Shown here piece after piece: positions 10,142-33,337 of a stretch of DNA of 49,524 nucleotides. The number at the start of each line of letters is the position of its first letter. The stretch's first letter is position 1. The notes under the pieces are model-generated. The model worked only from the letters and a program-made list of their open reading frames with translations, was not told the DNA's origin and did not search any database. This DNA is from Promethearchaeota archaeon. Lineage in GTDB: Archaea > Asgardarchaeota > Lokiarchaeia > Sigyniarchaeales > SOKP01. The stretch is from contig JAHPZI010000020.1 in NCBI GenBank assembly GCA_019058295.1, positions 42,632 to 92,155 on the forward strand, read 5' to 3'. Both the position numbers and the translations under genes were made by a program.

Positions 10142-11406
10142 GCCTCAGTATATTTTGGGGGTTCTTCAGGAATTTCTGCTATTTTAAATGTTTTTTTTGA
10201 GAATATTTTTGGCACTTGTTTTAGTATCGTACCCCAGAAAAACTTTTTTGCTCTTTTTTTTTTCGCTTTTTGATTTAAACTAGGTTTTTCTTCAATTGCC
10301 ATTTGTAATAATTCAATTATATGATAAACTTTAAGTTTTTTAAAGTAAAGTTTTTTATTTGCTGTAAATGTCGCTAAACACCCCGCACAATAGACGCAAA
10401 CAGCATCTGCTTTTGTTTTTTTGAACTCTTTAAAATTTCGTAATGTAGAAGCTCTTATTTTAAAGGGCTGATAAGCAGAATCTACTGAAAATCCAGCTCC
10501 AATTCCGCAACATCTCATGTTCTCCCGGCATGCTTCAATCTCGATAACTTTAACTCCAATCTTCTCAAGAATTTTGCGAGGTAAATCCATATATTCTTCT
10601 CCAAACATTTTGGAATAACAAGAATCTTGAATAGTTACTGACATGTTTAATTTCGTCTTAATTTGGATTTCCCCGCTTTGTATTTTCTCCCATAAATATT
10701 GAATATAAGACTTCACCTCATCAAACTTATATGTTAACCCATAGTGAGGAAGCACATTCTTGAATATATTTGTACCTGCGGTGCATAAAATCAAGAGTTT
10801 TTTTGGTTTTAATATATTAAACCATTTATCTAGTCGTTTTGTTATTTGAAAGAGCTCATCTCTATACCCTGTACGAAAAAGAGTCTCACCACAACAATAT
10901 TCTAGACGCCCTCTAATCTCTAAATCTTTGAAGAAACTTGCTTGGGTGAGTTCAGCAAAAGTTATAACATTGCATCCTGGATATGTAAGTGTATCTCCTT
11001 TAAGGGGTTCTAATGTCGCCCATTTACTTACCAATTCTTTGGTCTCTTTTGGTAAATGTTCCATCACATAGGAACGAAAATTAGGATAATGAGGATACAA
11101 TGTCATATAAAATTCGCCCCTTTTTCTTAATCCTTCCTTTCCATATTGCTCATTCCATCGCTGTAATATTAAACTGGCTGGATGAGCATTTGTAGGACAA
11201 TAAAAATTACAAGAAAAACAACTTTGGCATTCTGTTAATATTTTCTTAGTTTTTTCACCAGAAATCAATTTTTTCATCTCCATAACTGCTTCCTCTTTAG
11301 ATAAATGTATAATTGGGCAATTTAAAAAGCATTCACCGCATAAAGTGCAAGCTTCTTTATTAAATGGTGAAAAAAAGGTAATATCTATAGGTTCAATCTT
11401 AGTCAT
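10135..11406 (-). CDS. HdrD/GlpC-like Fe-S oxidoreductase (2x[4Fe-4S] + two CCG domains)
   Basis: CTLCGECFLNCP, CQSCFSCNFYCP, YPGC, YCCG, QDSC, RCCG, CAGC; overlaps the downstream paralog by 7 nt. Confidence 0.85.
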   Translation of the reverse strand: MTKIEPIDITFFSPFNKEACTLCGECFLNCPIIHLSKEEAVMEMKKLISGEKTKKILTECQSCFSCNFYCPTNAHPASLILQRWNEQYGKEGLRKRGEFYMTLYPHYPNFRSYVMEHLPKETKELVSKWATLEPLKGDTLTYPGCNVITFAELTQASFFKDLEIRGRLEYCCGETLFRTGYRDELFQITKRLDKWFNILKPKKLLILCTAGTNIFKNVLPHYGLTYKFDEVKSYIQYLWEKIQSGEIQIKTKLNMSVTIQDSCYSKMFGEEYMDLPRKILEKIGVKVIEIEACRENMRCCGIGAGFSVDSAYQPFKIRASTLRNFKEFKKTKADAVCVYCAGCLATFTANKKLYFKKLKVYHIIELLQMAIEEKPSLNQKAKKKRAKKFFWGTILKQVPKIFSKKTFKIAEIPEEPPKYTEAW

Positions 11407-11641: not shown

Positions 11642-14314
11642 TTATTTCTTTTCCTCTTCTAAAATTTGTGTTTTTTTTGCCATTTCTTTTTTTGGTTCTT
11701 CTACTGTTTTTTTTGTTGTAGCAGCTTTTTTTTCCTCAGGAGCTTTTATTGATTCTCCTTTTGTTTTTTCCACAGATATTTTTTTTGTAATAAGTTCTTT
11801 TCCTTCAGGAGTTTTTTTTGCTGTTACTTTTTTTTTTTCCACAGATTTTCCTATTTTAGCAAGTTTTTTTTTCTTAATAAGATATATTGAGATACCTATG
11901 GCACCAATACCAGAAGCAGCTCCAACTCCAATTGAGATTGGAATCCAAGGTTCAATTAATTTTTCCTCCACTCCTTTTTCGTCGTCATCATCCCCAGCAG
12001 GAATACCGCCATGAGTTACAACGCCTTTATCAATAACTTCAGGATCCACACCGATATAAAATACAAAATCTTTTTGTTCAAAACCACCAGTAGCGTCTAT
12101 ACTGCCGCTTAATTTTATTAAATTCTCAGTAGGATCTACAGTTATAGGTTCTAAAGATATGCTATAGTTTCCAGGTTCACCAATAACTTCAGAGCTATCA
12201 CCAGATACATCGGTGCCATTCCATAATAATGTACCAAAAGTTAAACCTGTAATCCCTTGATTATTGCTCGCATTAAAAACGAAAAAAGTGATATTAAACC
12301 AATCTTCTGAGTAAATTTGTTTTACAAGATCTATACCTAACTTTTTAAAACTTACTACTGGTACCGAACTTGGTTCCACAGCGATTGAAGTATTTAGGTT
12401 TCCATCAGCGTAACCAGTTTTGATCGCGGTTAAGTTAAACCATAATCCCGGCGCACCTGCAGTAACAAATTTCGCAGTTACATTTAAATTAAACGTTCCA
12501 TCGCCATTATCTGTAATATTCTCAGGCGCAGTGAGAGCAATACCATCCCATTTTCCTGAAAGCGACACACCTTTAATCAGATCTCCTGTACAATTTATAA
12601 TCTCCACTACAAATTCAAATGTTTCATTATTATATCTTTCTTTTATTATATTAACACTAAGCTTTGGTTTGGGCACGGCGATTTGAGTTTTTAAAGTTCC
12701 ATTAGCATATGGTCCAAGATGAGCGGTTAAGTTAAGCCATATTGCTGGATCTCCTTGATTAACATGTTTTGCTGGTAGTGCTAAACTATATTTTCCAGAA
12801 CCTCCACCAGTGGGAGTAATATCTCCTACTTGAATTTGATATGTTCCCCATTTTCCATTAATTTCACATCCATCCATTTGATTCCCCCATAAATCTAAAA
12901 CTCTTATAGTGAAATAAAACGTTGAATCCGTATATATTGATTTAATTAGTTCTATTAATAATCTATTAGGCATGATATATGTTGGAACTTGATAGAAGTA
13001 GAAAAGATCTGGTTTTGACAGCCTTGAATACTGAATCAAAACAGTATAATCAGAAAACTTGCCTGAGGATATTATAAACCAATAATCTATTTTAAAGCTC
13101 CAAGATAACCAATTAAATAATATTATCCAATGTAGATATGTGTCTTCGATTTGCCAAATTTCAATAGAAATCCATTCCCATTCAATTATAACTGAAGTTA
13201 TTAAGAATTTTACTTCTAATTCTAAAAGAGGCCAAGTAAAATGATATAAGACATCTACAATATCCCATAAAAAAACAGTAATAACTACATATGAATCTCC
13301 AGATCCACTAAACAACGTTAAATAATCAAGAAACCAATAGAAAGATAGATTAGCAACCCAAAGGGGGCCACCTGGCATTGGAACTTTTTTATGCAAACCC
13401 GTAAACATCAATGAGATTTCTTCAGTCTCTTTTTTTGTAAATAACAGTTCATATGTATTATTATAGTTAATTAAGATTGTATTATTCGCAGATGTAATAT
13501 TTATCAAATCTTTACCATAAAATGTTAAAGAAGGATTGTTCCATTCTAATACACGGCTATAATCAATCATATTATTACTTTCGTAAACACCAGATTCATT
13601 TACAATATAATGATTAAAATCAGTTTCTTGCCATTTGAACTGATTTAAAGTCTCGTTATAATCTAAATGAACCTTGAAATAATAGTCATCAGAGTATAAT
13701 TTTGTTAAATTATATTGTAAATCGTAGCCATCTGCTCTATTATGTTCATAATTAATCTTCTCTATTAAATCAATATCACCATCTGCCTCATAAGAACTGA
13801 TATTAAAGTTATCTAAATAATTCCCTACTGTATTTTTTTTAGCTTCCAAAGTAGCATTATAAAACCAAGCAGCGGGTGTATAATATACAAAAAATCTATT
13901 ATCACTATGGGTCACCTCAGTACTCAATTCTACTCCATCAAATATTATTGGTTCGAGATAAGTTACTGTTTTACCAATAACTCCCTCGGAAATAATATCA
14001 CGAGAACTATTTAAGCTAACACCTGCTAAATCACTTTGTTTTGATGAATCGACTTGAAATGGTATACCATCACTTTCAATTGTAGTCGTAGTCCAGTTAT
14101 TATCAGGATTGGCTTCAATCGTCATATTATTCGCATCATCCCAATCATAGAATTGTTGATAAGAAGCCTGCGATTTGGGTTTGGATAGGATATTTTCATT
14201 GGATATTTCATTGTCTTTTAGAACTATAGGCTTTGGAAAAGTAATTTGAAAGAAAGACGCCAAGATAACCGAGATAAAAACTAGGCTTAAAATCATCTTG
14301 TTTGCTTTTTTCAT
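11642..14314 (-). CDS. Large membrane-anchored cell-surface protein: signal peptide, Trp-rich segment, three Ig-like repeats, C-terminal TM helix and Lys-rich tail
   Basis: MKKANK + hydrophobic stretch; DNGDGTF (Big_1/invasin-like) motif in repeat 2; acidic GDDDDE linker; WIPISIGVGAASGIGAIGISIYLI followed by KKKK; many NxS/T sequons; AGGTGA 6 nt before ATG. Confidence 0.75.
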   Translation of the reverse strand: MKKANKMILSLVFISVILASFFQITFPKPIVLKDNEISNENILSKPKSQASYQQFYDWDDANNMTIEANPDNNWTTTTIESDGIPFQVDSSKQSDLAGVSLNSSRDIISEGVIGKTVTYLEPIIFDGVELSTEVTHSDNRFFVYYTPAAWFYNATLEAKKNTVGNYLDNFNISSYEADGDIDLIEKINYEHNRADGYDLQYNLTKLYSDDYYFKVHLDYNETLNQFKWQETDFNHYIVNESGVYESNNMIDYSRVLEWNNPSLTFYGKDLINITSANNTILINYNNTYELLFTKKETEEISLMFTGLHKKVPMPGGPLWVANLSFYWFLDYLTLFSGSGDSYVVITVFLWDIVDVLYHFTWPLLELEVKFLITSVIIEWEWISIEIWQIEDTYLHWIILFNWLSWSFKIDYWFIISSGKFSDYTVLIQYSRLSKPDLFYFYQVPTYIMPNRLLIELIKSIYTDSTFYFTIRVLDLWGNQMDGCEINGKWGTYQIQVGDITPTGGGSGKYSLALPAKHVNQGDPAIWLNLTAHLGPYANGTLKTQIAVPKPKLSVNIIKERYNNETFEFVVEIINCTGDLIKGVSLSGKWDGIALTAPENITDNGDGTFNLNVTAKFVTAGAPGLWFNLTAIKTGYADGNLNTSIAVEPSSVPVVSFKKLGIDLVKQIYSEDWFNITFFVFNASNNQGITGLTFGTLLWNGTDVSGDSSEVIGEPGNYSISLEPITVDPTENLIKLSGSIDATGGFEQKDFVFYIGVDPEVIDKGVVTHGGIPAGDDDDEKGVEEKLIEPWIPISIGVGAASGIGAIGISIYLIKKKKLAKIGKSVEKKKVTAKKTPEGKELITKKISVEKTKGESIKAPEEKKAATTKKTVEEPKKEMAKKTQILEEEKK

Positions 14315-14435: not shown

Positions 14436-15929
14436 TTGGGAGAGAAAGAAAAGATGAATAGTAGCAAATTAGTTAGTGAATTAGAAAAAATAGTAGGAGA
14501 TAATTATGTTTCAGAAGAACCTGAAATAACATTTTTATATCACTATGATTTTATTACAGCTGAGCCAGAGGGCAAATGTGATATCGCAATTATGCCAGGG
14601 TCAGCTGAAGAAGTACAAGAAATCGTTAAAATTGCCAATAAAAATAAAATTCCACTAGTTCCGTGGGTTTCGGGGATTAATTTCGGTTCGATTGCCACCC
14701 CAAGAAGGGGAGGGATCGTAGTTGACATGAGGAGACTAAATAAAGTCTTGGAAGTAAATGAGGATGACATGTATGCAGTTATTGAAGGTGGGATTACTTG
14801 GGCGGACTTAAAGGGTTATCTGGACGCACATCACCCCGATCTTAAGGCAGGAGTCACATGGTCTCCCCCTGGAACTGGAGTCGTACCTTCATGTTTATGC
14901 TATGGAATGTTTGATCTGGGAATGATTGGAGGCACGGGTGCCGAATTTATAAATGGTTTAGAAGTAGTGCTCGGTTCTGGCGAGCTAGTGAAAGTAGGCT
15001 CTTGTGCTCTTTCTAACTTATGGTATGGTCGGCAGCCTTTACCTGATTTAGCAGGATTATTTATAGGATGGGAAGGTACCACGGGTATAGTCACTAAAAT
15101 GGCTATCAAATTATGGCCAAAATTGCCATTTCGAACGGATTATATTTCAATGGCTCAAACAATGGAGGAAGGTGTTCCCATGATGCTTAAGCTTTCTAAA
15201 GCAGGATTGGGTATTATTGATCTTTGTATAATTAATTTAGGGTGGGCTCAATCGCTCTTTTGTTTTGATTCAAAAAATTTAGCTATAGATCCTATAGAAT
15301 TAGGTCTTGCAGATTTTTTTGGAATAATAACCACTCAAGCTTATACAGAAGAACAGCATAATGCTCAATGCAAAGCCATTGAAGAAATATGTAGCGAATT
15401 TAACGTCACACCTCTTACAGCAGATATACAAGTAAAGAATTTTCCTGAAAACCTGCTAGGTATTATGCACCATATTTCACCCTCGACAGGTGGACAAACA
15501 CCAATTCATTTCTGGGGTTGCTGGAATTTTTCAAGAGGTGGCGGGGGAGAATGGATCGGTTCATATTGCTCTACAAGGAATATTCTTAAATATTATCAAT
15601 TGTCTCGAAAAGTATGTATAAAATACGATAACCCACCACAATTTTATAGCAGGTTAATGATGGGGGGTCATTATTGCGTAGCTCGGACAAACATTAACTT
15701 TAATAAAAATGATCCGGAAGAAATCCAAAAAGCAAGAGACTGTCTGAAAGAAATCCATGAAGCCGTTCAGAACATAGATGGCGTAGTCATGTATAAACCT
15801 CCTACATGGGCAGTAGAACATAATAAAAACAAAACTCTTCCCGCAACAAATACTCTTATTAAAAAAATCAAGAAATTACTTGATCCTAATGATATCATGA
15901 ATCCAGGACAAGGTATTGAAGGTGAATAA
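14436..15929 (+). CDS. FAD-binding oxidoreductase (VAO/PCMH fold, GlcD/LdhA-like), paralog 1; probable start ATG 14454
   Basis: PGSAEEVQEIVKIAN, VDMRRLN, GLEVVLGSG, GLFIGWEGTTGIVTK, LDPNDIMNPG. Confidence 0.9.
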   Translation: MGEKEKMNSSKLVSELEKIVGDNYVSEEPEITFLYHYDFITAEPEGKCDIAIMPGSAEEVQEIVKIANKNKIPLVPWVSGINFGSIATPRRGGIVVDMRRLNKVLEVNEDDMYAVIEGGITWADLKGYLDAHHPDLKAGVTWSPPGTGVVPSCLCYGMFDLGMIGGTGAEFINGLEVVLGSGELVKVGSCALSNLWYGRQPLPDLAGLFIGWEGTTGIVTKMAIKLWPKLPFRTDYISMAQTMEEGVPMMLKLSKAGLGIIDLCIINLGWAQSLFCFDSKNLAIDPIELGLADFFGIITTQAYTEEQHNAQCKAIEEICSEFNVTPLTADIQVKNFPENLLGIMHHISPSTGGQTPIHFWGCWNFSRGGGGEWIGSYCSTRNILKYYQLSRKVCIKYDNPPQFYSRLMMGGHYCVARTNINFNKNDPEEIQKARDCLKEIHEAVQNIDGVVMYKPPTWAVEHNKNKTLPATNTLIKKIKKLLDPNDIMNPGQGIEGE

Positions 15930-17175
15930 AATTACAGAGAAGAAAGAAAGCAATTTCTTACCTGGAAAAGGAATTACAAAAATTACAACTGTTCCGAATC
16001 AACAAGAACTTGAGAGAAATAAAGAGTTAGAATATTATAAGGACATATTCTACCAATGTGGGAAATGTGGAACTTGCAGAACAGCATATCATGAAAATGG
16101 GTGGCCTCGGATATGTCCTTCTGGAGAATTCGGAAAGTTTGAAGCTTATTATCTTGGTGGCAAAAATCTCCTAACCTGGGCAATATCAACAGATCAGCTC
16201 AAATGGACGGAGAATTTGGCTAAAATCTTTTATAAATGTTCTGTATGTCTTGCATGTACTCAGCAATGTCAGATTCCTGAAATCCATCATTATGCGGGTG
16301 AGTGGTTGATGGCCATGAGAGAGGAAGCTGTTAGACAAGGATATGGTCCCATGCCCGAACAAGTGAAATATACTGAACATGTTATGAAAGAAAACAATCC
16401 ATACATGGAAAAACACAAAGATCGAACTAATTGGCTACCATCCTATATCAAGTTATCACCAAATGCCAAACTAGCTTATTTTATTGGATGCACAACTAGT
16501 TATAGGGAGCAAGAAGTCGCAATTGCCACCTCTGAAATATTAAATTCACTCGATATCGAATTTAGAATTTTAGATGATGAGCGATGTTGTGGTTCTCCAG
16601 TATATATGACGGGTCAAACTGATAAGGCAAAAGCGATAGCTGAAGAGAATATCAAAATATTCAAGGAAGCGGGCATTGAGAAAATAATAACATCTTGTGC
16701 TGGGTGTTATCGAACATTAAAGGATACTTATCCAAACAAATATGGTTTAGATCACGGTATTGAAATATTTCATCTTCCAGAATTTCTATTAGATAAGATG
16801 AAAAATGGAGAATTGAAATTCAATAAAAGTCTCAATATGAAAATTACTTATCATGATCCTTGCCATATTGGTCGTCATATGGGGATATACGAACCACCGA
16901 GAGAAGTCTTAAAAGATATTCCCGGAATAGAATTAATCGAAATGAATCGTAATAGACAGAATGCTTGGTGTTGTGGTTCAGGTGGTGGCGTTCGATCAGC
17001 TTTTAAGAACCTATCTGCTTTTGCTGCGGATGAGCGAATATTGGAAGCAAAAGAAACTAAAGCAGAAGCAATTGTCTCATGTTGTCCCTTCTGTTTAAAT
17101 CAATTTAAGACAAATATTAAAAATAATGAAATTATGGCTTTTGACCTCTCTGAGTTGGTTAGAAAAGCATTATAA
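15916..17175 (+). CDS. HdrD/GlcF-like (Fe-S)-binding protein, partner of FAD oxidoreductase 1
   Basis: CGKCGTC...CP, CSVCLACTQQC, FIGC, CCGSP, SCAGC, HDPCH, CCGSGGG, CCPFC. Confidence 0.9.
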   Translation: MKVNKITEKKESNFLPGKGITKITTVPNQQELERNKELEYYKDIFYQCGKCGTCRTAYHENGWPRICPSGEFGKFEAYYLGGKNLLTWAISTDQLKWTENLAKIFYKCSVCLACTQQCQIPEIHHYAGEWLMAMREEAVRQGYGPMPEQVKYTEHVMKENNPYMEKHKDRTNWLPSYIKLSPNAKLAYFIGCTTSYREQEVAIATSEILNSLDIEFRILDDERCCGSPVYMTGQTDKAKAIAEENIKIFKEAGIEKIITSCAGCYRTLKDTYPNKYGLDHGIEIFHLPEFLLDKMKNGELKFNKSLNMKITYHDPCHIGRHMGIYEPPREVLKDIPGIELIEMNRNRQNAWCCGSGGGVRSAFKNLSAFAADERILEAKETKAEAIVSCCPFCLNQFKTNIKNNEIMAFDLSELVRKAL

Positions 17176-17234: not shown

Positions 17235-18005
17235 GTGTCATATAAAAAGATTATAGAAAATATTAGGACTTTTGTTGATCAAGAAGTCCAAAAGGGAAAA
17301 AAATTAACAATTTTTAAAAGAAATTCAACTCCTTCTAATTATTTTAAAAAATTCAATATTAATGTTGGTCTAGATAAGTGTAAAGATATCATTCTTCAAG
17401 AGGAAACTAAAATTGAACTAGGTGGAGAAGGATATAAATCTTTTTCAATTGTTTATCCAATATCTGATTTAGAATATGTAATGGATGGTGATATTATTTT
17501 AATTGGAAAAGAAATTGAGGACATCTCTGACCGAAATTTGGATTTTGGAATGTTTATTTTAATTGGAGGCACAAGAATTTCAGAAAAAGATAGGGATGAT
17601 ATGAGGCGGTTCAATTTCCTTTCAAATGGGGTTGAAGGATTTATGATAAGAACAATCCCCCGAAGATTTTGGTGTAGAATTAGTGAGGATCTAATAAAAA
17701 AGGATTTTTCTTTTGAATTTTTTGGAAATGCTATAATGTATTTATATAAGCAAAAATTTAAGGATTTAATCGAATCTATTGAGATTTTATTTATTAATTC
17801 ATATCCAAATACCATAAACGAGTTTATTGAGACCACATCTGAGATTCGGGAACAAATTAGTGCAAAATGGAAAAAAAAGATTGAAGAATGGAAAAAAAGA
17901 ATAGATTGCGAGTACGATTGGGCATGTGAAATATGTCCCTATCAAGAAGATTGCTTTAAAATAAAGGAAACATTAGTAGAGAGAGATCTATTAGATGAAA
18001 GATAA
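17235..18005 (+). CDS. Truncated acetyl-CoA synthase beta (CdhC/AcsB)-like protein lacking the A-cluster domain, with C-terminal 4-Cys motif
   Basis: IELGG..KSF, DGDIILIG..I.DI, GVEGFM, WCRISE...K.FSF...G match my recollection of the CdhC N-terminal/AcsB middle domain; ends CEYDWACEICPYQEDC. Confidence 0.7.
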   Translation: MSYKKIIENIRTFVDQEVQKGKKLTIFKRNSTPSNYFKKFNINVGLDKCKDIILQEETKIELGGEGYKSFSIVYPISDLEYVMDGDIILIGKEIEDISDRNLDFGMFILIGGTRISEKDRDDMRRFNFLSNGVEGFMIRTIPRRFWCRISEDLIKKDFSFEFFGNAIMYLYKQKFKDLIESIEILFINSYPNTINEFIETTSEIREQISAKWKKKIEEWKKRIDCEYDWACEICPYQEDCFKIKETLVERDLLDER

Positions 18006-18777
18006 ATTAATTGAAAATACTCCACTAACAATAGCGGTTGTTGGAAAGGGAGGGGTTGGTAAAAGCGTTGTAACAACTCTTTTAGCTAAAGTAATCTCCC
18101 AATCCTATAACTACAAACTGCTCTTAATCGATGCCGACCCTACACACCCTCACCTTTCTCATATGGTGAAGCTAGTTCCAAAGCAAAGTCTTGAAGCAAT
18201 TAGAAATGATGTTATAGAAAGTACTTTAAAAAATGGAAAATCTCCAAAAAAAATAGCTCAAAATCTTGATTTTAAAGTATATAACTCTATGGCAGAAAGC
18301 AAAGATTATTGTTTATTTTCAATTGGTCAACCTGAAGGACCAGGCTGTTTTTGTCCATCAAATGCTCTCTTGAAAAGAGTAATTAAATCGATTTCTAAGG
18401 ATTTTGATGTCATTCTTATGGATTGTGAAGCTGGACTTGAGCAAATTAATAGGTTGGTTTTAGAGTCTGTAGATATTATTTTGATTGTAACAGATATTTC
18501 TCTTAGAAGTGTAGAAACGGCAAATTCTATTAGGAAAAGCGCTAAAAAATTTACAAACTATAAAAAACTAGGGATTCTCGTTAATAAAGTGAAAGGAAAC
18601 ATAGATCTTATAATAGAAAAGTTAAATCAATTGAATTTACCACTTTTAGGACAGATACCTGAAGATGATACTATTATAAAACAAGATCTAGAAGGTAAAC
18701 CTATTATCGATTTACCTGAAGATGCACCTAGTTTGAATGTCATTAAAAGTTTGGTAAAAGAAATACTTAGTATGTAG
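17995..18777 (+). CDS. cooC: CooC/AcsF-type nickel-insertion ATPase (MinD/SIMIBI class)
   Basis: GKGGVGKS deviant Walker A, DADP, GPGCFCP (CxC metal site), DCEAGLE, VNKV, IPED. Confidence 0.85.
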   Translation: MKDKLIENTPLTIAVVGKGGVGKSVVTTLLAKVISQSYNYKLLLIDADPTHPHLSHMVKLVPKQSLEAIRNDVIESTLKNGKSPKKIAQNLDFKVYNSMAESKDYCLFSIGQPEGPGCFCPSNALLKRVIKSISKDFDVILMDCEAGLEQINRLVLESVDIILIVTDISLRSVETANSIRKSAKKFTNYKKLGILVNKVKGNIDLIIEKLNQLNLPLLGQIPEDDTIIKQDLEGKPIIDLPEDAPSLNVIKSLVKEILSM

Positions 18778-18783
18778 AAAAAT

Positions 18784-19914
18784 TTACATGGTTATAAGGT
18801 CTCCTATAGAATATTGCCCCCCGAATTTAGTACCTTTTTCAGGAACGTTTTCCCGGACTTTCACCATTTTAATTGCGTCTTTAGGACAATTTGCTGCGCA
18901 CACTCCACATCCAATGCACAATTCTTCCCTTATAACCATTTTTTCATCAGATAAATCCGCTTCTATAGGAAATTTGTGGTATATTGCTTCACCTGGGCAT
19001 TTTCTCATGCAAGTTTCACATTTAATACATAGTTCCATATTAATTTTGGGTGAATAATTGGAAGCTATAGAACCTTTAACATGCATTAATCGTGCGGGAT
19101 ATAACGCACCACAATGACAACTGCAACAATTACATATAAACATACCTGGTTCTGTGGTTCCAAAACTTGCATTATGCACAAGTCCTGCCTTCTCGGTATC
19201 TTTAAGAAATTGAATTGCCTCTTCTTTAGTCAAAAGTCGACCATCATCACACATGGTAGGAATTGCTTGGGCAGCCAATCCAACTATAAAGCATCCCATC
19301 TCTGCTGGTGCTATTTTACATGGTTCACCTGTTAATTCACCGATTAGCCTACATTGGCAAGGGATTACAGCAAAATGCTCATTTTTATCAATCAAATCTT
19401 TTACTAACTCATAAGAAAGTGCTTGGGATTCATAATCTAAGGATTCATTAATTTCAATTAATTTCTCTTTAGCCTCGTAAGGAAGTAAAGGTCGAAATAT
19501 TTTGTGAACACCTTCATAAGCTGCTGCTGGCGAAAATTTCTTAAAAATCTCGCGATATAATTTAGCAGCTTCTTTCTGATTCTCTTCAGTATCTTTCCGT
19601 ACAATAAAATATTTCTCGAAAACACCAGGTACTAAGGGCAGTAGAGTATATCTGGCTCCTTTCTTAGCTATCGTCCCATTCCTTATAGATCTATTTAAAA
19701 TCTTTTTGATTTCACCTTTAGGGATACCAGTTTTTTCTTCAAGTGCTTTTAGGCTTATAAAATTTCCAACCTTTCCAAAATGAGAAAGTATTTTTATCTC
19801 TTCCTCATTCCAGAAAACTTTTAATAATTTTATTATTTTTTTATGTTTAGGGGCATTTAATGGACCTAATACTAAATTTTGTCTTACTTTTTCATAGTAA
19901 TCAATTTCAGTCAT
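18784..19914 (-). CDS. Cys-rich 4Fe-4S dicluster (polyferredoxin-like) protein with N-terminal helical/wHTH-like region
   Basis: PCQCR, GCF, AEKAGLVH-like segment, ICNCCSCHCG, CIKCETCMRKCP, CIGCGVCAANCP. Confidence 0.8.
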   Translation of the reverse strand: MTEIDYYEKVRQNLVLGPLNAPKHKKIIKLLKVFWNEEEIKILSHFGKVGNFISLKALEEKTGIPKGEIKKILNRSIRNGTIAKKGARYTLLPLVPGVFEKYFIVRKDTEENQKEAAKLYREIFKKFSPAAAYEGVHKIFRPLLPYEAKEKLIEINESLDYESQALSYELVKDLIDKNEHFAVIPCQCRLIGELTGEPCKIAPAEMGCFIVGLAAQAIPTMCDDGRLLTKEEAIQFLKDTEKAGLVHNASFGTTEPGMFICNCCSCHCGALYPARLMHVKGSIASNYSPKINMELCIKCETCMRKCPGEAIYHKFPIEADLSDEKMVIREELCIGCGVCAANCPKDAIKMVKVRENVPEKGTKFGGQYSIGDLITM

Positions 19915-20191: not shown

Positions 20192-21223
20192 ATGTCAGAT
20201 GATGGGGAAAGAGCATCGGGTGTTATTAATACATGGCAAGAAAAAAAAGTCCCATTACATTTTGAACAAGAAAAACTCGTTAAATGGTTCACTGAAGAAA
20301 GAGGGGCTGTATTTTATCTTATGTTTGGAATTACATACAACTGCCAACTCAAATGTCCGCACTGTTGTGTTGGCAATTACGAGAATGAACCTCTTAGACA
20401 ACTTACAACGGAAGAGGTTAAGGATGTATTAGATCAAGCTAATAAAGCTTTTATAATCAACTTCTTTGGTGGTGAACCAACTATGAGACCAGATTTAATG
20501 GAATTAATAAAGTATGCTTCAGAGAGATCGATATATGTGTTATGTGATACAAATGGATTAAAAATCACTAAAGATTATGCAAGGCAATTGAAGGATAATG
20601 GCTTAGAGATTTTGTATGTTAGTATTGATAGTCCTCATCCCGAAGAACACGATAGATTACGCGGAATGAAGGGATTGTTTGAGAAAGCGACTCAAGGAAT
20701 AAAAAATGCACTTGAAGTAGGATTAAAATGTGAACTATCTACATATATAACGAAGGAAAATCTTGCAAACGGTGACTTTGAAAGAGTAATTCAGTTGGCA
20801 AGAGATCTGGGAGCAACCGGTGTTAGATATTTGTTACCCACACCAGCCGGTAGATGGTTATATCATCCTGAAGTAGTGTTAAGCAAAGAAGAAGAAAAGA
20901 AAGTTAGGAAAATCGCAAAATTCCCTTACGTTTGTAGAGATTTCTACTTTCAAAATCAGAGCTCAAGTCAATGCAGAGGGCTGTCAGATAATGTCTATTT
21001 TTATATTTCTCCTTATGGAGAAGTTCAGCCTTGCTGTTTTATACCACTTAAATTCGGAAATATCAGGGAAGAACCTCTGAACACGATTTTGGAAAGAATG
21101 TGGGGCCATTCAATGTTCAACGAATGTTGGGTGAAAGAAGAATGCCCGATGATAAGCAAGGAGTTCCGAGCGAAATACATAGATACGATTCCAAAAGGGT
21201 GTAAACTACCATTTAGAATGTAA
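20192..21223 (+). CDS. Radical SAM enzyme with SPASM/twitch domain
   Basis: CQLKCPHC, GGEP, DTNG, VSID, C-terminal CRG...YISPYGEVQPC...FGNI...C...CP. Confidence 0.88.
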   Translation: MSDDGERASGVINTWQEKKVPLHFEQEKLVKWFTEERGAVFYLMFGITYNCQLKCPHCCVGNYENEPLRQLTTEEVKDVLDQANKAFIINFFGGEPTMRPDLMELIKYASERSIYVLCDTNGLKITKDYARQLKDNGLEILYVSIDSPHPEEHDRLRGMKGLFEKATQGIKNALEVGLKCELSTYITKENLANGDFERVIQLARDLGATGVRYLLPTPAGRWLYHPEVVLSKEEEKKVRKIAKFPYVCRDFYFQNQSSSQCRGLSDNVYFYISPYGEVQPCCFIPLKFGNIREEPLNTILERMWGHSMFNECWVKEECPMISKEFRAKYIDTIPKGCKLPFRM

Positions 21224-21295: not shown

Positions 21296-22723
21296 ATGAT
21301 TGATAGTAAAATAATTGTTGAATTAGAAAATGTGGTCGGAAAAAAGTATGTTTCTGATCAACCCGAAATTCAATTTTTATATCATTACGATTTTGTTACA
21401 GCAGAACCTGAAGGAATTTGCGACATTTCAATTATGCCAAATTCAGCAGAAGAAGTACAAGAAATTGTAAAGCTTGCTAACAAACATAAAATTCCAGTAG
21501 TCCCTTGGGTTTCGGGAATAAATTTCGGATCGATTGCAACTCCGCGAAAAGGTGGAATTGTAGTTGATTTAAGGCGATTAAATCGCGTGCTTGAAGTGAA
21601 CGAAGATGATATGTATGCCGTAATCGAGGGAGGTACAACTTGGGCAGATTTACAAGGTTATCTCGAAAAAAATCATCCTGGTTTGAGAGCGGGAATAACA
21701 TGGTCGCCTCCAGGGACAGGTATAGTTCCATCATGCTTATGCTACGGGATGTTTGATTTGGGGATGCTCGGAGGATCGGGTGCTGAATTTATAAACGGTT
21801 TAGAAGTGGTACTAGGATCTGGAGATTTAGTAAAGGTTGGTTCTTGCAGCCTCTCTAATTACTGGTATGGAAGGCAACCATTACCAGATTTAGCAGGATT
21901 GTTTATTGGTTGGGAAGGTTCTACCGGGATTGTAACTAAAGCCGCTATAAAATTATGGCCAAAAATGCCGTTCCGAGAAGATTTTGCCGCTCTCGGTCTT
22001 ACAATAGATAAAGGTGTTCCTGTAATGCTTAAACTCTCGAAGGCTGGCCTCGGAATATGTGATCTAGTCATCGTTAATTTCGGTTGGGGTTCGTCAGTTC
22101 AAGAATTAAATGAGAAGAATATAGCTAAAGATGCTAAAGAAGCTAATATGCCTGATTTTGTTGGTCTTATAACAACCCAAGCTTACACAGAAAAGCAGCA
22201 TGAGGCTCAATGCGAAGCGATTAAAGAGATTTGCAAAGAAGGTAATCTAAGAGTGCTTTCTGCTCAAGAAGGAGCAGAGGTAATAACACCACCTCCAATG
22301 CAACTTTGGGGTTGTTGGAATTTCTCTAGAGGAGGTGGTGGACAATGGGTTGGAACTTATTGTTCCACTCGAGATATAGTAAAATTTTATAATTTAGCGA
22401 GAGAAATATGTCTTAAACATGAAAAAATCCCACAGTTCTATAGCCGAATTTTATTTGGTGGTCATTATGTCGTTGCTCGTACGAATATTAACTTTAATAA
22501 AAATAATCCTGAGGAAATTAAAACTACTCGTGCACTTTTAAAAGAAATTCATGAAGAAGTTCAACAATTAGGCGGAGTAGTGATGTATAAACCTCCAAAA
22601 TGGGCAGTCCAGACTTATAAGAACAGAACTCTTCCTGCAACAACTGAACTTATCGAAAAAATCAAGAAACTTCTTGATCCTAACAATATAATGAATCCTG
22701 GGCAAGGTATTGGAGACGATTAA
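21296..22723 (+). CDS. FAD-binding oxidoreductase (VAO/PCMH fold), paralog 2
   Basis: Same motifs as 14436-15929; highly similar N-terminal FAD domain. Confidence 0.9.
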   Translation: MIDSKIIVELENVVGKKYVSDQPEIQFLYHYDFVTAEPEGICDISIMPNSAEEVQEIVKLANKHKIPVVPWVSGINFGSIATPRKGGIVVDLRRLNRVLEVNEDDMYAVIEGGTTWADLQGYLEKNHPGLRAGITWSPPGTGIVPSCLCYGMFDLGMLGGSGAEFINGLEVVLGSGDLVKVGSCSLSNYWYGRQPLPDLAGLFIGWEGSTGIVTKAAIKLWPKMPFREDFAALGLTIDKGVPVMLKLSKAGLGICDLVIVNFGWGSSVQELNEKNIAKDAKEANMPDFVGLITTQAYTEKQHEAQCEAIKEICKEGNLRVLSAQEGAEVITPPPMQLWGCWNFSRGGGGQWVGTYCSTRDIVKFYNLAREICLKHEKIPQFYSRILFGGHYVVARTNINFNKNNPEEIKTTRALLKEIHEEVQQLGGVVMYKPPKWAVQTYKNRTLPATTELIEKIKKLLDPNNIMNPGQGIGDD

Positions 22724-23969
22724 TATGGCAAAAAAGAAAAGAGTTAGTTATATCAGAGGAAAGGGAGTATCCAAATTAAGATTGGCATATGAAAATCATG
22801 AGGTTGAGAGGCACCAAAATATAGAACATTATAAGGATATTGTATACCAGTGTGGGAAATGTGGCACTTGTAGAACTGTTTATAAAGACGCTTATTGGTC
22901 GCGCATTTGTCCATCCGGAGAATTCGGACAGTTTGAAGCCTATTTTCTAGGGGGAAAAAATCTCCTCTCATGGGCAGTAACATCTGATAAACTTAAATGG
23001 TCAGAAGATTTGGCCAAGATTTTTTATCATTGTTCTGTTTGCTTGGCATGTACTCAACAATGTCAGATACCCGAAATACACCATTACGCCGGTGAATGGT
23101 TAATGGCAATGAGAGAAGAAGCTGTCAGATTAGGGTTTGGTCCTATGCCTGAACAAGCTCGATATACTGAACATATTAATAAAGAACACAATCCCTACAT
23201 GGAAAAACACGAAGATCGAACGAATTGGTTGCCATCCCATATTAAACAATCACCAGACGCAAAAATAGCATATTTTGTTGGGTGTACCACGAGTTATAGG
23301 GAACAAAATGTAGCGATCGCCACTGCGGAAATATTGAATTCCTTACAGATAGAATTTAAAATTCTTAAAGACGAACGCTGTTGTGGGTCTCCCGTATATA
23401 TGACTGGGCAAGCAGAAAAAGCAAAAAAAATAGCCGAAGAAAATGTAAAAATGTTTAAAGATGAAGGGATCGAGAAAATTATTACATCTTGCGCTGGGTG
23501 TTATAGGACATTAAAAGAAACTTACCCAAAAAAATTTGGCTTAGATCACGGAATTGAAGTAATTCATATGCCTAAGTTTTTATTAGATATGGTAAATAGT
23601 GGCGAATTGAAATTTAACAAGGAAATCAACATGAAAATAACATATCACGACCCGTGCCATATTGGAAGACATATGGGGATATATGAACCACCAAGGAAAG
23701 TTTTAAATAAAATACCCGGGATTGAACTAGTGGAAATGGATCGAAATAGACATAATGCATGGTGTTGTGGTTCAGGTGGTGGCGTTCGATCAGCTTTTAA
23801 GGACCTATCTACTTTTGCTGCGGATGAGCGAATCGAGGAAGCAAAGGGAACTTCAGCTGAGGCTATTGTATCGTGTTGTCCTTTCTGTTTAAACCAATTC
23901 AAAACACATATTAAAGATAACGAAATAAAAGCTTTTGATATTGCTGAACTTGCAAGAAAAGCGATTTAA
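22710..23969 (+). CDS. HdrD/GlcF-like (Fe-S)-binding protein, paralog 2; probable start ATG 22725
   Basis: Two ferredoxin-type motifs and two CCG domains. Confidence 0.9.
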   Translation: METINMAKKKRVSYIRGKGVSKLRLAYENHEVERHQNIEHYKDIVYQCGKCGTCRTVYKDAYWSRICPSGEFGQFEAYFLGGKNLLSWAVTSDKLKWSEDLAKIFYHCSVCLACTQQCQIPEIHHYAGEWLMAMREEAVRLGFGPMPEQARYTEHINKEHNPYMEKHEDRTNWLPSHIKQSPDAKIAYFVGCTTSYREQNVAIATAEILNSLQIEFKILKDERCCGSPVYMTGQAEKAKKIAEENVKMFKDEGIEKIITSCAGCYRTLKETYPKKFGLDHGIEVIHMPKFLLDMVNSGELKFNKEINMKITYHDPCHIGRHMGIYEPPRKVLNKIPGIELVEMDRNRHNAWCCGSGGGVRSAFKDLSTFAADERIEEAKGTSAEAIVSCCPFCLNQFKTHIKDNEIKAFDIAELARKAI

Positions 23970-24091: not shown

Positions 24092-25192
24092 ATGGAAAAA
24101 AATATAAAAGTTTTTGGAGCGGCATTAGACGCAACTGATTTTCCGCTTAGCATTCAGACCAAACATGCTTATTTAAGTCGCTTAGCTCAAAATCTAATTA
24201 CAGAACCAAATTTTTTGGATCCATACGATGGATTCCTCTTATATTCTTCTCTCTTATCAAAAGAAAAGTATCTTAAAATTGGTAAACTTCCAGTGGAATC
24301 GTGGGTAACTCCTAAACCAAACATTGAAGATTATCCATTTATGAATCAATTAGAGTTTCAGAAATTCACTAGTAATGGAAAAGTAAAGGAAAAATCAGAT
24401 TTGTTAGAGAAATTTATTAATCAAGAAGTATTTCCTGATATTCCTTTAATGATTGGTGTTGATCATTCTTTGACAGGAGGAGTATTAAGCGCATTATCAA
24501 ATAAATTTGGATCTGAGAACATCCTTGTTGTGGTTTTTGACGCACATTTCGACGGAATCCCGGCAAGTATATCTGCTAATCTCGCAAAATATACGATAGA
24601 ACATCCAGATCAGGTTAATCCACTAGTTCCTGAACTTGCATCATTAGCCAATGAAGACCTTAATAATATAAAGGATTCTTATACATGTGGCTCATTTTTA
24701 TATTATTTGATGGAGGAAAAGATCCTTTTACCTGAAAATCTGATAATTTTTGGCTGTCAAGATTATCCAGACGACGATTTTCGATCAAATAACGATCCAA
24801 GGATCTTGGAATACGTTGATTTCTATGATTCCATTGAAAAAAAGGGAGTTAAATTTATTTCCAAAAACGATGGGACTCATATGGTTGAAAATTTGAGTTC
24901 TGCTTTAGAAATAATTGATACACCTTATATCTATATTTCATTTGATGTAGATGTGGGTGGATTAAAAGAAATTATTGCCGCTCGATTTAAAAACGCAATT
25001 GGAATAGAGAAATCCGTAATTTTAAATGCAGGTAAAGAAATTAAAAAATTTATGGATTTAAAAAGATGTGAATTAATTGGTCTTGATGTAATGGAAATAG
25101 AGACGCATCTGCTTAGCAGAGTCTTTCCAAAGTCAGGAAGAGTAGATCAGACTGTCGAAGTTATTGATGAATTTTTAGAATTTTTCATTTAG
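24092..25192 (+). CDS. Arginase/agmatinase (ureohydrolase) family protein
   Basis: GVDHS, FDAHFD, YISFDVD, GLDVME metal-binding motifs. Confidence 0.8.
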   Translation: MEKNIKVFGAALDATDFPLSIQTKHAYLSRLAQNLITEPNFLDPYDGFLLYSSLLSKEKYLKIGKLPVESWVTPKPNIEDYPFMNQLEFQKFTSNGKVKEKSDLLEKFINQEVFPDIPLMIGVDHSLTGGVLSALSNKFGSENILVVVFDAHFDGIPASISANLAKYTIEHPDQVNPLVPELASLANEDLNNIKDSYTCGSFLYYLMEEKILLPENLIIFGCQDYPDDDFRSNNDPRILEYVDFYDSIEKKGVKFISKNDGTHMVENLSSALEIIDTPYIYISFDVDVGGLKEIIAARFKNAIGIEKSVILNAGKEIKKFMDLKRCELIGLDVMEIETHLLSRVFPKSGRVDQTVEVIDEFLEFFI

Positions 25193-25350: not shown

Positions 25351-26766
25351 TTGAATAATAATGAAATTGTATCTGAATTGGAAAATATTGTTGGAGAACA
25401 GTTTGTATCGGACAAACCTGAAGAAACCTTTTTATACCATTATGATTTTATTACGGCAGAGCCCGAAGGCAAATGTGATATTGTAATAATGCCAAAAACA
25501 GCAGAAGAGGTACAAGAGATTGTTAAGATAGCTAATAAATTCAAAATTCCATTAGTCCCTTGGGTTTCTGGAATAAATTTCGGTTCTACAGCAACGCCCC
25601 TAAAAGGAGGAATTGTTGTGGATTTAAGGCGATTAAATCGCGTGCTTGAAGTAAATGAAGACGATATGTATGCATTAATAGAAGGAGGGACAACTTGGGC
25701 GGGCTTACAGGCATATCTCGGAAAGAACCATCCAAATCTCATGGCAGGTGTCACTTTTTCCCCTCCAGGAACTGGAGTTGTAGCGTCTTGTTTATGTTAT
25801 GGAATGTTCAACTTAGGGATGCTTGGTGGCACGGGGGCTGAATTCATTAATGGATTAGAAGTAGTATTAGGTTCGGGCGATTTAGTAAGGGTGGGGTCGT
25901 GTAGTTTATCTGATTATTGGTATGGTAGACAACCATTACCCGATTTAGCAGGATTATTTATTGGTTGGGAAGGTTCTACTGGAATCGTAACTAAAGCCGC
26001 CATAAAACTATGGCCGAAATTACCTTTCCGAAAAGATTTTGTACTAATGGGAAACACATTCGATATGGGCATTCCAGTATTATTAAAGCTCTCAAAAGCA
26101 GGATTAGGAATATGTGACATATTTGTTTTCAGTTATAATTGGATTCAAGCTGCTATTGGTGCTTACGAAAAAAAAGTTCCACTTAATCCATTAAAAGATA
26201 ATTTACCAGTTTTTATCTCAGGTGTCACCACGCAGGCTTATACCGAAAAACAACACGAAGCTCAATGTGAAGCTATTGAGACGATATCTAAAGAAGGAGG
26301 TCTTACGGAAGCACCACAGGGGATATCGCTTGACATACTGCCTTATCAGGCCTGGGGTGCTTGGAATTTCTCTAGAGGTGGAGGAGGTGAATGGATTGGG
26401 AGCTACTGTTCAACACGAGAGATTATAAAATATTACAAATTAGCCAGAGAAACTGCTCTCAAACATGGACACACTTCTCAGTTTTATAGCAGACTTTTAT
26501 TTGGAGGCCACTATTGCGTTTCCCGATTTAATATAAATTTTAACAAAAATGATCCTGAAGAAATAGAATCAGCTCGAATAATTCTAAAAGAAATTCATGA
26601 AGAAGTCTCTTCTTTAGATGGTGTTGTAATGTATAAGGCTCCAAAATGGGCTCATGAAGTATATGAAGAGAAGATTTATCCAGCTACTTATGAATTAATG
26701 AAAAAAATCAAGAACCTCTTAGATCCTAATAAAGTAATGAATCCAGGACATGGTTGGGGTGATTAA
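25351..26766 (+). CDS. FAD-binding oxidoreductase (VAO/PCMH fold), paralog 3
   Basis: Same motifs as paralogs 1 and 2; TTG start. Confidence 0.9.
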   Translation: MNNNEIVSELENIVGEQFVSDKPEETFLYHYDFITAEPEGKCDIVIMPKTAEEVQEIVKIANKFKIPLVPWVSGINFGSTATPLKGGIVVDLRRLNRVLEVNEDDMYALIEGGTTWAGLQAYLGKNHPNLMAGVTFSPPGTGVVASCLCYGMFNLGMLGGTGAEFINGLEVVLGSGDLVRVGSCSLSDYWYGRQPLPDLAGLFIGWEGSTGIVTKAAIKLWPKLPFRKDFVLMGNTFDMGIPVLLKLSKAGLGICDIFVFSYNWIQAAIGAYEKKVPLNPLKDNLPVFISGVTTQAYTEKQHEAQCEAIETISKEGGLTEAPQGISLDILPYQAWGAWNFSRGGGGEWIGSYCSTREIIKYYKLARETALKHGHTSQFYSRLLFGGHYCVSRFNINFNKNDPEEIESARIILKEIHEEVSSLDGVVMYKAPKWAHEVYEEKIYPATYELMKKIKNLLDPNKVMNPGHGWGD

Positions 26767-29390: not shown

Positions 29391-29400
29391 CTCGCTTTAA

Positions 29401-33224: not shown

Positions 33225-33337
33225 ATACCCATCTCAATCTATTTATTGACTTTATTCTATTAAGATAATTATTTATTTATAAAAGATATATCGATATCTC
33301 TTAAATATATTTACCTTATATCTACTAATTTGGACAT

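Follow-up and report, generated by a model that had tools for sequence, protein, structure and literature searches.

What role remains for a fragment of acetyl-CoA synthase (ACS) that is encoded next to a CooC-type ATPase but outside any CODH/ACS operon? ACS is usually viewed as a single-purpose, ancient Ni-Fe-S enzyme, with the CooC and AcsF ATPases, which deliver Ni to CODH/ACS, as its dedicated nickel chaperones. In the window, the whole 49,524-nucleotide stretch of archaeal DNA analysed here, a gene for a 256-aa protein (mini-ACS, ORF A) overlaps a gene for a CooC-type ATPase (ORF B). A reading made from the sequence only had taken the two as an uncharacterised metalloprotein/maturase module, possibly handling CoA or acyl groups or activating neighbouring Fe-S enzymes. 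We find that an ACS fragment and a CooC paralogue have been given a second life in several bacterial phyla and in Asgard archaea, where they are tied to ATP-driven radical Fe-S enzymes acting on CoA thioesters. Full-text literature searches found no published description of the mini-ACS protein or of the cassette. The explanation we favour, with a probability of roughly one half, is that mini-ACS is a CoA-binding Fe-S accessory of HGD-D radical-enzyme systems, served by its own dedicated CooC paralogue.

Results

ORF A is an ACS A2 domain

ORF A (17235-18005, forward strand, GTG start) encodes an ACS A2 domain with an N-terminal helix/strand extension and a tail carrying a Cys motif. Pfam matches residues 51-187 to PF03598 (CdhC) with 60 bits (cut-off 24) and an E-value of 3.2e-16. 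NCBIfam places residues 38-234 on positions 3-194 of its archaeal CdhC model (464 positions) and residues 53-218 on positions 315-480 of its bacterial alpha/beta model (710 positions), and ORF A therefore corresponds to the N-terminal domain of CdhC, the equivalent of the middle domain of AcsB. The curated equivalog models score it far below their cut-offs (TIGR00316, 58 bits against 356; NF003379, 64 against 372). The AF2 model has a pLDDT of 91 and a pTM of 0.84. At E <= 1e-3 its Foldseek matches are exclusively ACS chains, and VIA aligns it to ACS with a Z of 19.6 and an rmsd of 2.2 Å over 170 residues, the best non-ACS chain reaching a Z of 2.6. A profile of the mini-ACS family searched against the PDB finds residues 318-510 of C. 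hydrogenoformans ACS (E 3e-27). The earlier likening of the protein to the CdhC N-terminal domain alone, and with it the expected structural similarity to AcsB/CdhC, is borne out by these searches. Pairwise BLASTP between ORF A and the genome's own CdhC gives only a weak match (109 residues, 27% identity), which is why profile methods were needed.

Judged from sequence comparison, a chance open reading frame is excluded by 354 homologues of like length and by the retention of the complete four-Cys motif in 120 of 120 close homologues. The family comprises 307 clusters at 50% identity, and in the tree its members group together in a clade of their own, which a long branch separates from ACS.

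The CoA-site motif and the Cys tail

The motif W146-x-R148 (17670-17678, forward strand) is common to all ACS examined (NWLRVS, VWMRIS). Both residues are at least 90% conserved in an alignment of 40 diverse mini-ACS members, and W-x-R is found in 99 of 115 diverse family representatives. W146 aligns with Trp405 of C. autoethanogenum ACS, give or take one residue in the numbering, the VIA ranges giving an offset of 258-259 between ORF A and 6ytt_A. In the solved complex of that enzyme Trp405 stacks on the adenine of acetyl-CoA, whose contacts are made mainly by A2 (bioRxiv 10.1101/2024.08.05.606187). The conserved Trp-x-Arg of the ACS CoA site is thus consistent with the CoA-handling role that had been suggested for the protein.

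The predicted C-x5-C-x2-C-x5-C ending is present as C225-x5-C231-x2-C234-x5-C240 (17907-17954, forward strand; C-EYDWA-C-EI-C-PYQED-C). In the 40-member alignment C231, C234 and C240 are invariant, and C-x2-C-x5-C is kept in 113 of the 115 representatives; conservation of the tail Cys therefore holds family-wide for these three but not for the fourth, C225, which is not universal. In alignments the tail falls on the CxxC that holds the cubane in ACS and in the genome's own CdhC (Cys195/198), and it is on this basis a positional homologue of the first A-cluster cubane ligands. The claim that a new four-Cys tail replaces the A-cluster domain consequently stands in part: A3 is indeed missing, but the tail coincides in the alignment with the beginning of that very domain and is not wholly new. 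Only 16 residues follow the motif, and the Cys-Gly-Cys (C284-G-C286 in the genome's own CdhC) and the rest of A3 are absent. The spacing differs from the C-x2-C-x8-C-x9-C of that CdhC, and the later cubane ligands of ACS are without counterpart.

The classical 2x[4Fe-4S] ferredoxin motif CxxCxxCxxxCP is absent from the tail, and Pfam finds no Fer4 match in ORF A. In one natural variant (P0207) a classical 2x[4Fe-4S] ferredoxin domain is appended behind the motif. The tail region of the AF2 model is of moderate confidence (pLDDT ~70). Its three invariant Cys could equally well hold Zn, Ni or a cluster shared with another protein, and from its sequence the tail may also be considered a Zn-ribbon.

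ORF B is a dedicated CooC paralogue

ORF B (17995-18777, forward strand, ATG start, 260 aa) overlaps ORF A by 11 nt in a different frame. It carries a deviant Walker A, GKGGVGKS (residues 17-24; 18043-18066, forward strand), together with the SIMIBI switch motifs DADP and DCEAGLEQ, all of them conserved in 36 partner sequences, with G17, K18, G19, G20, G22 and K23 conserved in at least 90%. Of the structures in the PDB, C. hydrogenoformans CooC1 (3kje, E 3.1e-17) comes closest to it. The CxC motif C118-F-C120 (18346-18354, forward strand) is invariant in the same 36 sequences, and GPGCFC of ORF B aligns to GSQCYC of CooC1, in agreement with the earlier view of an overlapping CooC-type ATPase with an intact CxC. 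Pfam matches ORF B to CbiA, AAA_31 and Fer4_NifH. A second, solitary CooC-type gene, 32% identical to ORF B, lies elsewhere in the genome. ORF B thus resembles CooC1 and other SIMIBI metal or cluster ATPases (NifH, CfbC, Mrp/NBP35) in its deviant Walker A, its switch motifs and its CxC, but it is a separate, dedicated paralogue.

In the window's lineage a CooC-type gene adjoins the mini-ACS gene in 26 of 26 testable loci, which makes the pair a real and conserved two-gene module. The expected co-occurrence with cooC extends to other genomes: among 34 testable GTDB loci, retrieved with patterns from one bacterial subfamily (a four-sequence alignment) and so not an unbiased sample, the gene is adjacent in 21, present anywhere in the locus in 25 and missing from nine. 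Mini-ACS therefore does not need CooC in cis, and all five genomes checked among those whose mini locus lacks the gene hold high-scoring copies elsewhere.

The co-fold with CooC that had been proposed was run with two CooC copies and one mini-ACS, and its ipSAE of 0.68 (best control 0.00) supports a predicted contact between the two proteins. Of 80 solved complexes 58 attain this ipSAE mark, as do two of 110 mismatched pairs, counts that apply only approximately here since the alignments were our own and the job had three chains. The runs have at least 74% of contacts in common, with partner pLDDT of at least 80. In the modelled interface, mini-ACS residues 240-250 lie against CooC residues 121-128, immediately after the CxC. 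No ACS-CooC or ACS-AcsF complex is known to have been solved, which makes it unlikely that the co-fold owes its pass to a memorised structure. The model suggests that the predicted client of ORF B is mini-ACS rather than CODH or ACS, a further difference from CooC1.

Gene neighbourhood in the window and its clade

As the sequence-only reading had stated, the pair directly follows a flavoprotein/HdrD-like cassette (cassette 1; 14436-17175, forward strand). Pfam assigns its genes to an FAD_binding_4 flavoprotein (14436-15929, 497 aa) and an HdrD-like CCG-domain protein (15916-17175, 419 aa), and the gap between the latter and ORF A is 59 nt. Throughout the window's Asgard clade cassette 1 accompanies the pair, lying either upstream of it or divergent from it: 20-kb contexts show it beside the pair in 11 further genomes from the window's own family and in one of the neighbouring family f2 (L107), and a flavoprotein/CCG cassette also stands beside the pair in L004, L006 and L054. 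The order hgd-hgd-flavoprotein-CCG-mini-CooC is seen in six loci of the clade (L004, L006, L099, L101, L102 and L105).

In the window itself the mini-ACS gene is not part of an HGD-D/BcrAD operon; the nearest HGD-D gene is 9.3 kb off and on the other strand. It belongs to a group of five HGD-D family genes (28065-34786, reverse strand), BzdN/HadC-like and HadB/BzdO-like by Pfam and PDB matches (closest solved relatives BzdN, 8s02_B, E 1.7e-50, and HadB, 3o3m_A, E 6e-14). The idea that these five are the partners of the module is not supported, as their identity to the HGD-D pairs linked to the cluster in relatives is only 25-41%, which makes them paralogues of those pairs. The orthologue (57-66% identical) is found at C20:32363-34810, beyond the window and 22 kb upstream of cassette 1. 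No BcrAD gene was found in the window or in the 20-kb contexts of own-family clusters. A genome without any BcrAD activase is ruled out, as four BcrAD genes lie elsewhere in it.

Pfam scans of open reading frames of at least 100 aa find no CODH, corrinoid Fe-S protein or methyltransferase in the window, as had been noted before; the sole corrinoid-related match is a 216-aa B12-binding-domain protein (37149-37799).

The pair travels with HGD-D enzymes and not with CODH/ACS

The placement of the module outside any CODH/ACS operon is general, with no CODH/ACS genes linked to the pair in about 90 loci examined. In three of five bacterial genomes checked only mini forms were present and no full-length ACS was found. 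The window's genome has a true CdhC with an adjacent CdhB-like gene on another contig.

The neighbourhood analysis of homologues shows HGD-D enzymes and BcrAD activases as constant neighbours instead. Among 33 testable bacterial and Jordarchaeial loci from the same one-subfamily GTDB retrieval, drawn from Dehalococcoidia, Thermodesulfobacteriota, Bacteroidota, Spirochaetota, Bacillota and Jordarchaeia, HGD-D genes stand upstream on the same strand in 31, and BcrAD genes are likewise present in 31. The idea that the module serves neighbouring Fe-S enzymes is thereby strongly backed by comparative genomics. BcrAD and the mini-ACS/CooC pair occur together in bacterial, Jordarchaeial and Sigynarchaeotal loci, and the narrower idea of an ATP-dependent activator is weakened, as the bacterial operons hold a classical BcrAD activase in addition to the pair.

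Discussion

Compared with ACS (AcsB, A1-A3; CdhC, A2-A3), mini-ACS has the same A2 fold, the same W-x-R and Cys at the position of the first cubane ligands, and like ACS with AcsF or CooC it is paired with a CxC-bearing CooC-family ATPase. It differs in its lack of A3 and of the Cys-Gly-Cys Ni site, in its Cys spacing, in its lack of linkage to CODH, CFeSP or methyltransferase genes, in its occurrence where no ACS was found and in its separate clade. We propose that mini-ACS is a stand-alone descendant of ACS. It keeps a short Cys motif and A2, the domain through which ACS mostly contacts CoA, but has lost the Ni-Ni site with the rest of A3, and acetyl-CoA synthesis is therefore beyond it. CoA or an acyl-CoA would be held on the A2 face, and a small Fe-S centre, most likely a [4Fe-4S] cluster with three invariant Cys and a variable fourth ligand, would sit on the tail. 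A CooC dimer is predicted to dock onto mini-ACS with its CxC metal site beside the tail, and ORF B may spend ATP to load or remodel the tail centre, much as AcsF and CooC do for ACS and CODH.

The pair would then act as an accessory of HGD-D radical enzymes of the benzoyl-CoA-reductase/2-hydroxyacyl-CoA-dehydratase type, and mini-ACS would probably be a subunit that binds a CoA thioester and transfers or gates electrons on their way from the electron-input module to the catalytic subunits. The input module would be the BcrAD activase in bacteria and the flavoprotein/HdrD-like cassette in the window's clade, where that cassette occupies the place of BcrAD in the gene order (hgd-hgd-[flavoprotein-CCG]-mini-CooC against hgd-hgd-[BcrAD]-mini-CooC). 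In bacteria, Jordarchaeia and Sigynarchaeota the mini-ACS gene lies in or beside operons of the class I BCR, 2-hydroxyacyl-CoA dehydratase and DCCP kind (BzdNOPQ, HadBC-HadI). It takes the slot behind the ATPase genes, which in the Thauera bcr operon belongs to a ferredoxin gene. Characterised HGD-D/BcrAD systems, however, have no ACS-derived or CooC-type component, and BzdNO produced in E. coli is active with its clusters without such partners (PMC11971306); the pair is therefore dispensable for characterised enzymes of this family.

Another explanation makes the two proteins a maturation pair that builds or repairs unusual HGD-D clusters, for instance the double-cubane [8Fe-9S] or the aqua-[4Fe-4S], with mini-ACS as scaffold or adaptor and the ATPase as the agent of cluster transfer or fusion. 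In its favour, CooC and AcsF offer a precedent as maturases, HGD-D/BcrAD operons have the pair at their 3' end, and in the modelled co-fold the mini tail comes to lie at the CooC metal site. The window's 378-aa HGD-D subunit, moreover, most closely resembles BzdN, a protein with a bound [8Fe-9S] cluster (PMC11971306). Yet E. coli, which supplied BzdNO with its clusters, lacks the pair (PMC11971306), strongly conserved CoA-site residues have no obvious use in a cluster scaffold, and the ferredoxin-fused variant suits electron transfer better than assembly, and we regard a maturation pair as rather unlikely. A nickel enzyme, in which CooC would insert Ni beside the tail cubane to give a "half A-cluster" ([4Fe-4S]-Ni) for CoA thioester chemistry (acyl transfer, thioester formation or cleavage) in the pathway of the neighbouring enzymes, appears distinctly unlikely. 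To our knowledge Ni sites are the sole clients of CooC-type ATPases, the tail aligns with the ACS Cys that bridges the cubane and the proximal Ni, the CoA-site motif is kept, and in one bacterial locus HypA and a CobW-family GTPase lie just downstream. Against this, the distal-Ni Cys-Gly-Cys and all of A3 are gone, only three Cys are universal, nine of the 34 testable loci have no CooC-type gene, and linkage to a Ni transporter or another Ni marker is not seen.

Two related ideas concern electron input in the window's clade. On one of them, the flavoprotein/HdrD-like cassette together with mini-ACS/CooC would replace the ASKHA-type activase in the window's clade and inject low-potential electrons into the HGD-D enzyme in a different way, driven by the NifH-like CooC ATPase or by flavin/HdrD-type redox coupling, with the ACS-derived domain gating the transfer on CoA-thioester binding; we offer this as a speculation with little probability. 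On the other, which we think still more doubtful, the CooC-type dimer, a NifH-like SIMIBI protein, and mini-ACS would form an ATP-driven electron injector for HGD-D enzymes, replacing BcrAD in the window's clade. The Fer4_NifH match of ORF B and the missing BcrAD genes in the window and in the own-family contexts favour it, and the CxC pair at the dimer interface could bridge a cluster, but BcrAD and the pair co-occur in bacterial, Jordarchaeial and Sigynarchaeotal loci and the window's genome has four BcrAD genes elsewhere. That mini-ACS is a spare part of the Wood-Ljungdahl pathway, a paralogue aiding maturation or regulation of the true CODH/ACS, seems hardly credible: the domain is ACS-derived and the genome does have a true CdhC and a CdhB-like gene, but the linkage data, the presence of the pair in genomes where no full ACS was found and the long branch of the mini clade all speak against it, and the solitary second CooC-type gene is available to the true enzyme.

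If mini-ACS is indeed a CoA-binding Fe-S or Ni-Fe-S subunit, a hitherto unknown component would be added to the benzoyl-CoA-reductase/dehydratase class, and CooC-type ATPases would have a wider clientele than was thought. It would also be a defined target for enzymology, namely which substrate it binds, which metal it holds and why an ATPase is required. The Asgard version with its flavoprotein/HdrD-like cassette is relevant to proposals of a fermentative, amino-acid and hydroxy-acid metabolism in the archaea most closely related to eukaryotes.

Two smaller observations concern the immediate surroundings of the pair. Convergent with the CooC gene is a gene for a 376-aa protein (18784-19914, reverse strand) with a C-terminal 2x[4Fe-4S] ferredoxin domain (Pfam Fer4 families, residues 290-350). 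In 12 of the 48 loci analysed, L037, L053 and L086 among them, a homologue of this protein is encoded no more than 9 kb from the mini gene, and one also occurs near the pair in a locus of the same genus (L010/L108). Within ORF A, an antisense open reading frame of 127 aa (17453-17836) was taken as a by-product of the AT-rich coding strand.

Results

ORF A (17235-18005, +; 256 aa) and ORF B (17995-18777, +; 260 aa) overlap by 11 nt in different frames, and the four tail cysteines of ORF A (225, 231, 234 and 240) are spaced C-x5-C-x2-C-x5-C, exactly as a sequence-only reading of this stretch had them. The GTG start of ORF A is supported by homologues that align from residue 1. As that reading also held, the pair lies directly 3' of cassette 1, in which a FAD_binding_4 flavoprotein gene is joined by one for a CCG-domain (HdrD-like) protein (14436-17175, +; Pfam), at a distance of 59 nt, and a Pfam scan of all ORFs of at least 100 aa turned up neither CODH nor corrinoid Fe-S protein nor methyltransferase in the window. 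The window is Asgard and encodes a Ras-family GTPase (Pfam), and the nearest homologues of ORF A are labelled Promethearchaeota, Lokiarchaeota, Hodarchaeota or Thorarchaeota.

ORF A is an A2 domain derived from acetyl-CoA synthase (ACS), hereafter mini-ACS. It matches Pfam CdhC (PF03598) at E 3.2e-16, over the curated cut-off. Of the NCBIfam models, archaeal CdhC is matched over its initial 194 positions by residues 38-234 and the bacterial alpha/beta protein over positions 315-480 by residues 53-218, in both cases far under the equivalog cut-off. The AlphaFold2 model, built on an alignment of 40 diverse homologues, has a pLDDT of 91 (about 70 in the tail) and a pTM of 0.84. The likeness to the CdhC N-terminal domain, proposed from sequence, held up in structure searches: all 23 PDB chains found by Foldseek at E <= 1e-3 are ACS (next match, E 0.7), and VIA-align superposed the model on M. 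thermophila CdhC residues 5-178 with Z 19.6 and 2.2 A rmsd over 170 residues, compared to Z 2.6 for the best non-ACS chain. The match to M. thermoacetica ACS 315-495, the A2 middle domain, was comparable (VIA-align).

A total of 354 homologues have a similar length, the best 120 of them spanning 247-278 aa, and the family forms 307 clusters at 50% identity, 142 of these under E 1e-10; true proteins of CdhC size appear among the matches only from about E 1e-12 onward. Public annotations call the homologues 'hypothetical protein' or give generic ACS-family names, and a full-text literature search found no published description of a mini-ACS/CooC protein or cassette. Across 40 diverse members G63, G91, C231, C234 and C240 are invariant, while conservation reaches at least 90% at L62, S69, G135, W146 and R148. 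W-x-R-[IV] occurs in 99 of 115 representatives, and W-x-R is common to mini-ACS and every ACS aligned (NWLRVS and VWMRIS; the CdhC of this genome reads NWMRLS). Going by structural alignment ranges, W146 equals C. autoethanogenum ACS Trp405 to within one residue; this Trp stacks on adenine in the ACS acetyl-CoA complex, in which the interactions of acetyl-CoA are chiefly with A2 residues (bioRxiv 10.1101/2024.08.05.606187). The minis are monophyletic with respect to three ACS outgroup sequences (SH-aLRT 100), and the window sequence falls inside a 31-row Asgard clade (support 99), distinct from a bacterial clade within which the Jordarchaeial sequences branch.

The Cys tail had been taken as new, which was borne out only in part. 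A family profile searched against the PDB (E 3e-27) extends to C. hydrogenoformans ACS residue 510 and sets the first two tail cysteines against the ACS CxxC, with three residues left as a gap; hhalign pairs C225 with Cys195 of the genome's own CdhC, the first of its ligands C195, C198, C207 and C217. Because both profile comparisons align tail cysteines to ACS/CdhC cubane ligands, the tail is a shortened, re-spaced start of the A-cluster site and not an unrelated addition. The CdhC Ni ligands C284-G-C286 have no equivalent in ORF A (hhalign), and the Ni-Ni site is gone. The former cubane position in ORF A is taken by a conserved site of three or four cysteines. Conservation of the tail stands for C-x2-C-x5-C, present in 113 of 115 full-length representatives, and only in part for the fourth Cys 3-5 residues upstream (87 of 115); the four-Cys form is retained in all 120 close homologues. 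One natural fusion (P0207, ENA metagenome, 308 aa) joins a mini-ACS including C-x2-C-x5-C to a classical 2x[4Fe-4S] ferredoxin domain.

ORF B proved to be the CooC-type ATPase with intact CxC that had been proposed. CooC1 (3kje) is its best solved relative (E 3.1e-17, CxC aligned), followed by MinD and NifH-type proteins at E 5e-11 and weaker, and in 36 partner sequences the CxC, deviant Walker A and switch motifs vary little or not at all. Since the genome has a second, solitary CooC-type gene 32% identical to it, ORF B is a dedicated paralogue. Co-occurrence with cooC extends to other genomes: the gene is directly 3' of the mini-ACS gene in 26/26 testable loci of the window's own lineage and also in L003, L004, L006 and L107, and among testable GTDB species-representative loci it is adjacent in 21/34 and somewhere in the locus in 25/34. 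All five genomes checked whose mini-ACS locus is without one have high-scoring copies elsewhere. The suggested co-fold (two CooC, one mini-ACS) gave ipSAE 0.68 compared to 0.00 for the best control; this mark is attained by 58/80 solved complexes and 2/110 mismatched pairs, counts that are only rough here because the job took three chains and alignments made for this analysis. Runs had at least 74% of contacts in common, with partner pLDDT of at least 80. Both CooC copies are touched, and mini-ACS residues 240-250 contact CooC 121-128, just past C118/C120. The predicted interface between ORF A and its dedicated CooC paralogue lies at the two metal motifs.

The mini-ACS family is tied to benzoyl-CoA-reductase/2-hydroxyacyl-CoA-dehydratase-type enzymes (HGD-D). 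Same-strand HGD-D genes lie upstream in 31/33 testable loci, BcrAD (activase) genes are present in 31/33, and in about 90 loci no CODH/ACS genes were found nearby, which upholds the placement of the module outside CODH/ACS operons. The bacterial order, hgd-hgd(-hgd)-BcrAD(-BcrAD)-mini-CooC, is seen in Thermodesulfobacteriota, Dehalococcoidia, Bacteroidota, Spirochaetota and Bacillota. Of five bacterial genomes checked, three encode mini forms only, full ACS not being found in those three. The Jordarchaeial mini-ACS genes (L083, L084, L106) are of bacterial type, and their operon begins with the CooC-type gene (CooC-hgd x3-BcrAD x2-mini). It has the look of a transfer between Jordarchaeia and bacteria, unconnected with the window's clade. 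In a Thermodesulfobacteriota operon (L037:9007-10026) the pair is succeeded, on its own strand, by genes for a 375-aa Fer4 protein, for HypA and for a GTPase of the CobW family, the latter two being nickel or zinc chaperone types, and in a Dehalococcoidia operon (L053) DUF6125 lies two genes past the CooC gene.

The window adds an Asgard flavoprotein/HdrD-linked form and a split arrangement in this genome. The flavoprotein/CCG cassette adjoins the pair in every locus of the window's clade, co-directional in some (hgd-hgd-flavoprotein-CCG-mini-CooC in L004, L006, L099, L101, L102 and L105) and divergent in L096, L097, L100, L103 and L104. No BcrAD gene was found within the own-family 20-kb contexts of the pair; one Sigynarchaeotal locus has BcrAD/HGD-D and the flavoprotein/CCG-mini-CooC unit together. 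In this genome the HGD-D pair orthologous to the syntenic one of relatives (57-66% identity) is at C20:32363-34810, 22 kb upstream of cassette 1, in a region upstream of the window (L110:7885-11344, equal to G000:C20:31884-35343). A 156-aa protein without Pfam match comes before this pair, with a DUF6125 protein on the other side; unknown proteins of like size (161, 162 and 153 aa) precede the HGD-D pair in L004, L006 and L054. The five HGD-D genes in the window (28065-34786, -) are more distant paralogues (25-41% identity) with no BcrAD activase beside them in the window, and the four BcrAD genes of the genome are all off its contig (C1, C16, C21).

Discussion

We favor a reading in which the tail of mini-ACS holds an Fe-S centre, as suggested by the cubane-ligand homology, the pattern of three cysteines and the fusion to a ferredoxin. 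CoA thioesters would still be bound by the A2 face, and mini-ACS may be an accessory subunit for electron transfer or gating whose metal site would be loaded by the CooC-type ATPase.

The two proteins might instead be a maturation pair that builds unusual HGD-D clusters, which we regard as doubtful. A Ni-bearing 'half A-cluster' enzyme, set beside the retained cubane-type cysteines and the missing C-G-C ligands, is improbable, and the pair as an alternative activator, set beside BcrAD genes in most testable loci and their absence from the own-family 20-kb contexts, is slightly more so. Maturation of true CODH/ACS is unlikely given that none of its genes was found near the pair in about 90 loci.

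Several neighbors of the pair deserve mention. A 376-aa protein (18784-19914, -) has a C-terminal 2x[4Fe-4S] domain and 290 N-terminal residues without assignment; homologues lie no more than a few kb from the mini-ACS/CooC pair in 12 of 48 loci analysed, bacterial and archaeal, and it may be a third component of the system. Three paralogous FAD_binding_4 + CCG cassettes lie within 14 kb (cassette 1, 21296-23969 and 25351-28006), only the first being followed by the pair; the intervals between them hold a gene for a radical SAM/SPASM protein (20192-21223) and one of the arginase family (24092-25192). Two more tandem HdrD-like CCG proteins (456 and 423 aa; 8771-11406, -; 7-nt overlap) are encoded upstream of a gene for an 890-aa protein without Pfam match (11642-14314). 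The 378-aa HGD-D subunits of the window array are closest to BzdN (E 1.7e-50), a double-cubane cluster binder, and the array is adjoined by the Ras/Rab-family small GTPase gene (34909-35691, -; Pfam Ras E 1.3e-30), which is Asgard-typical.
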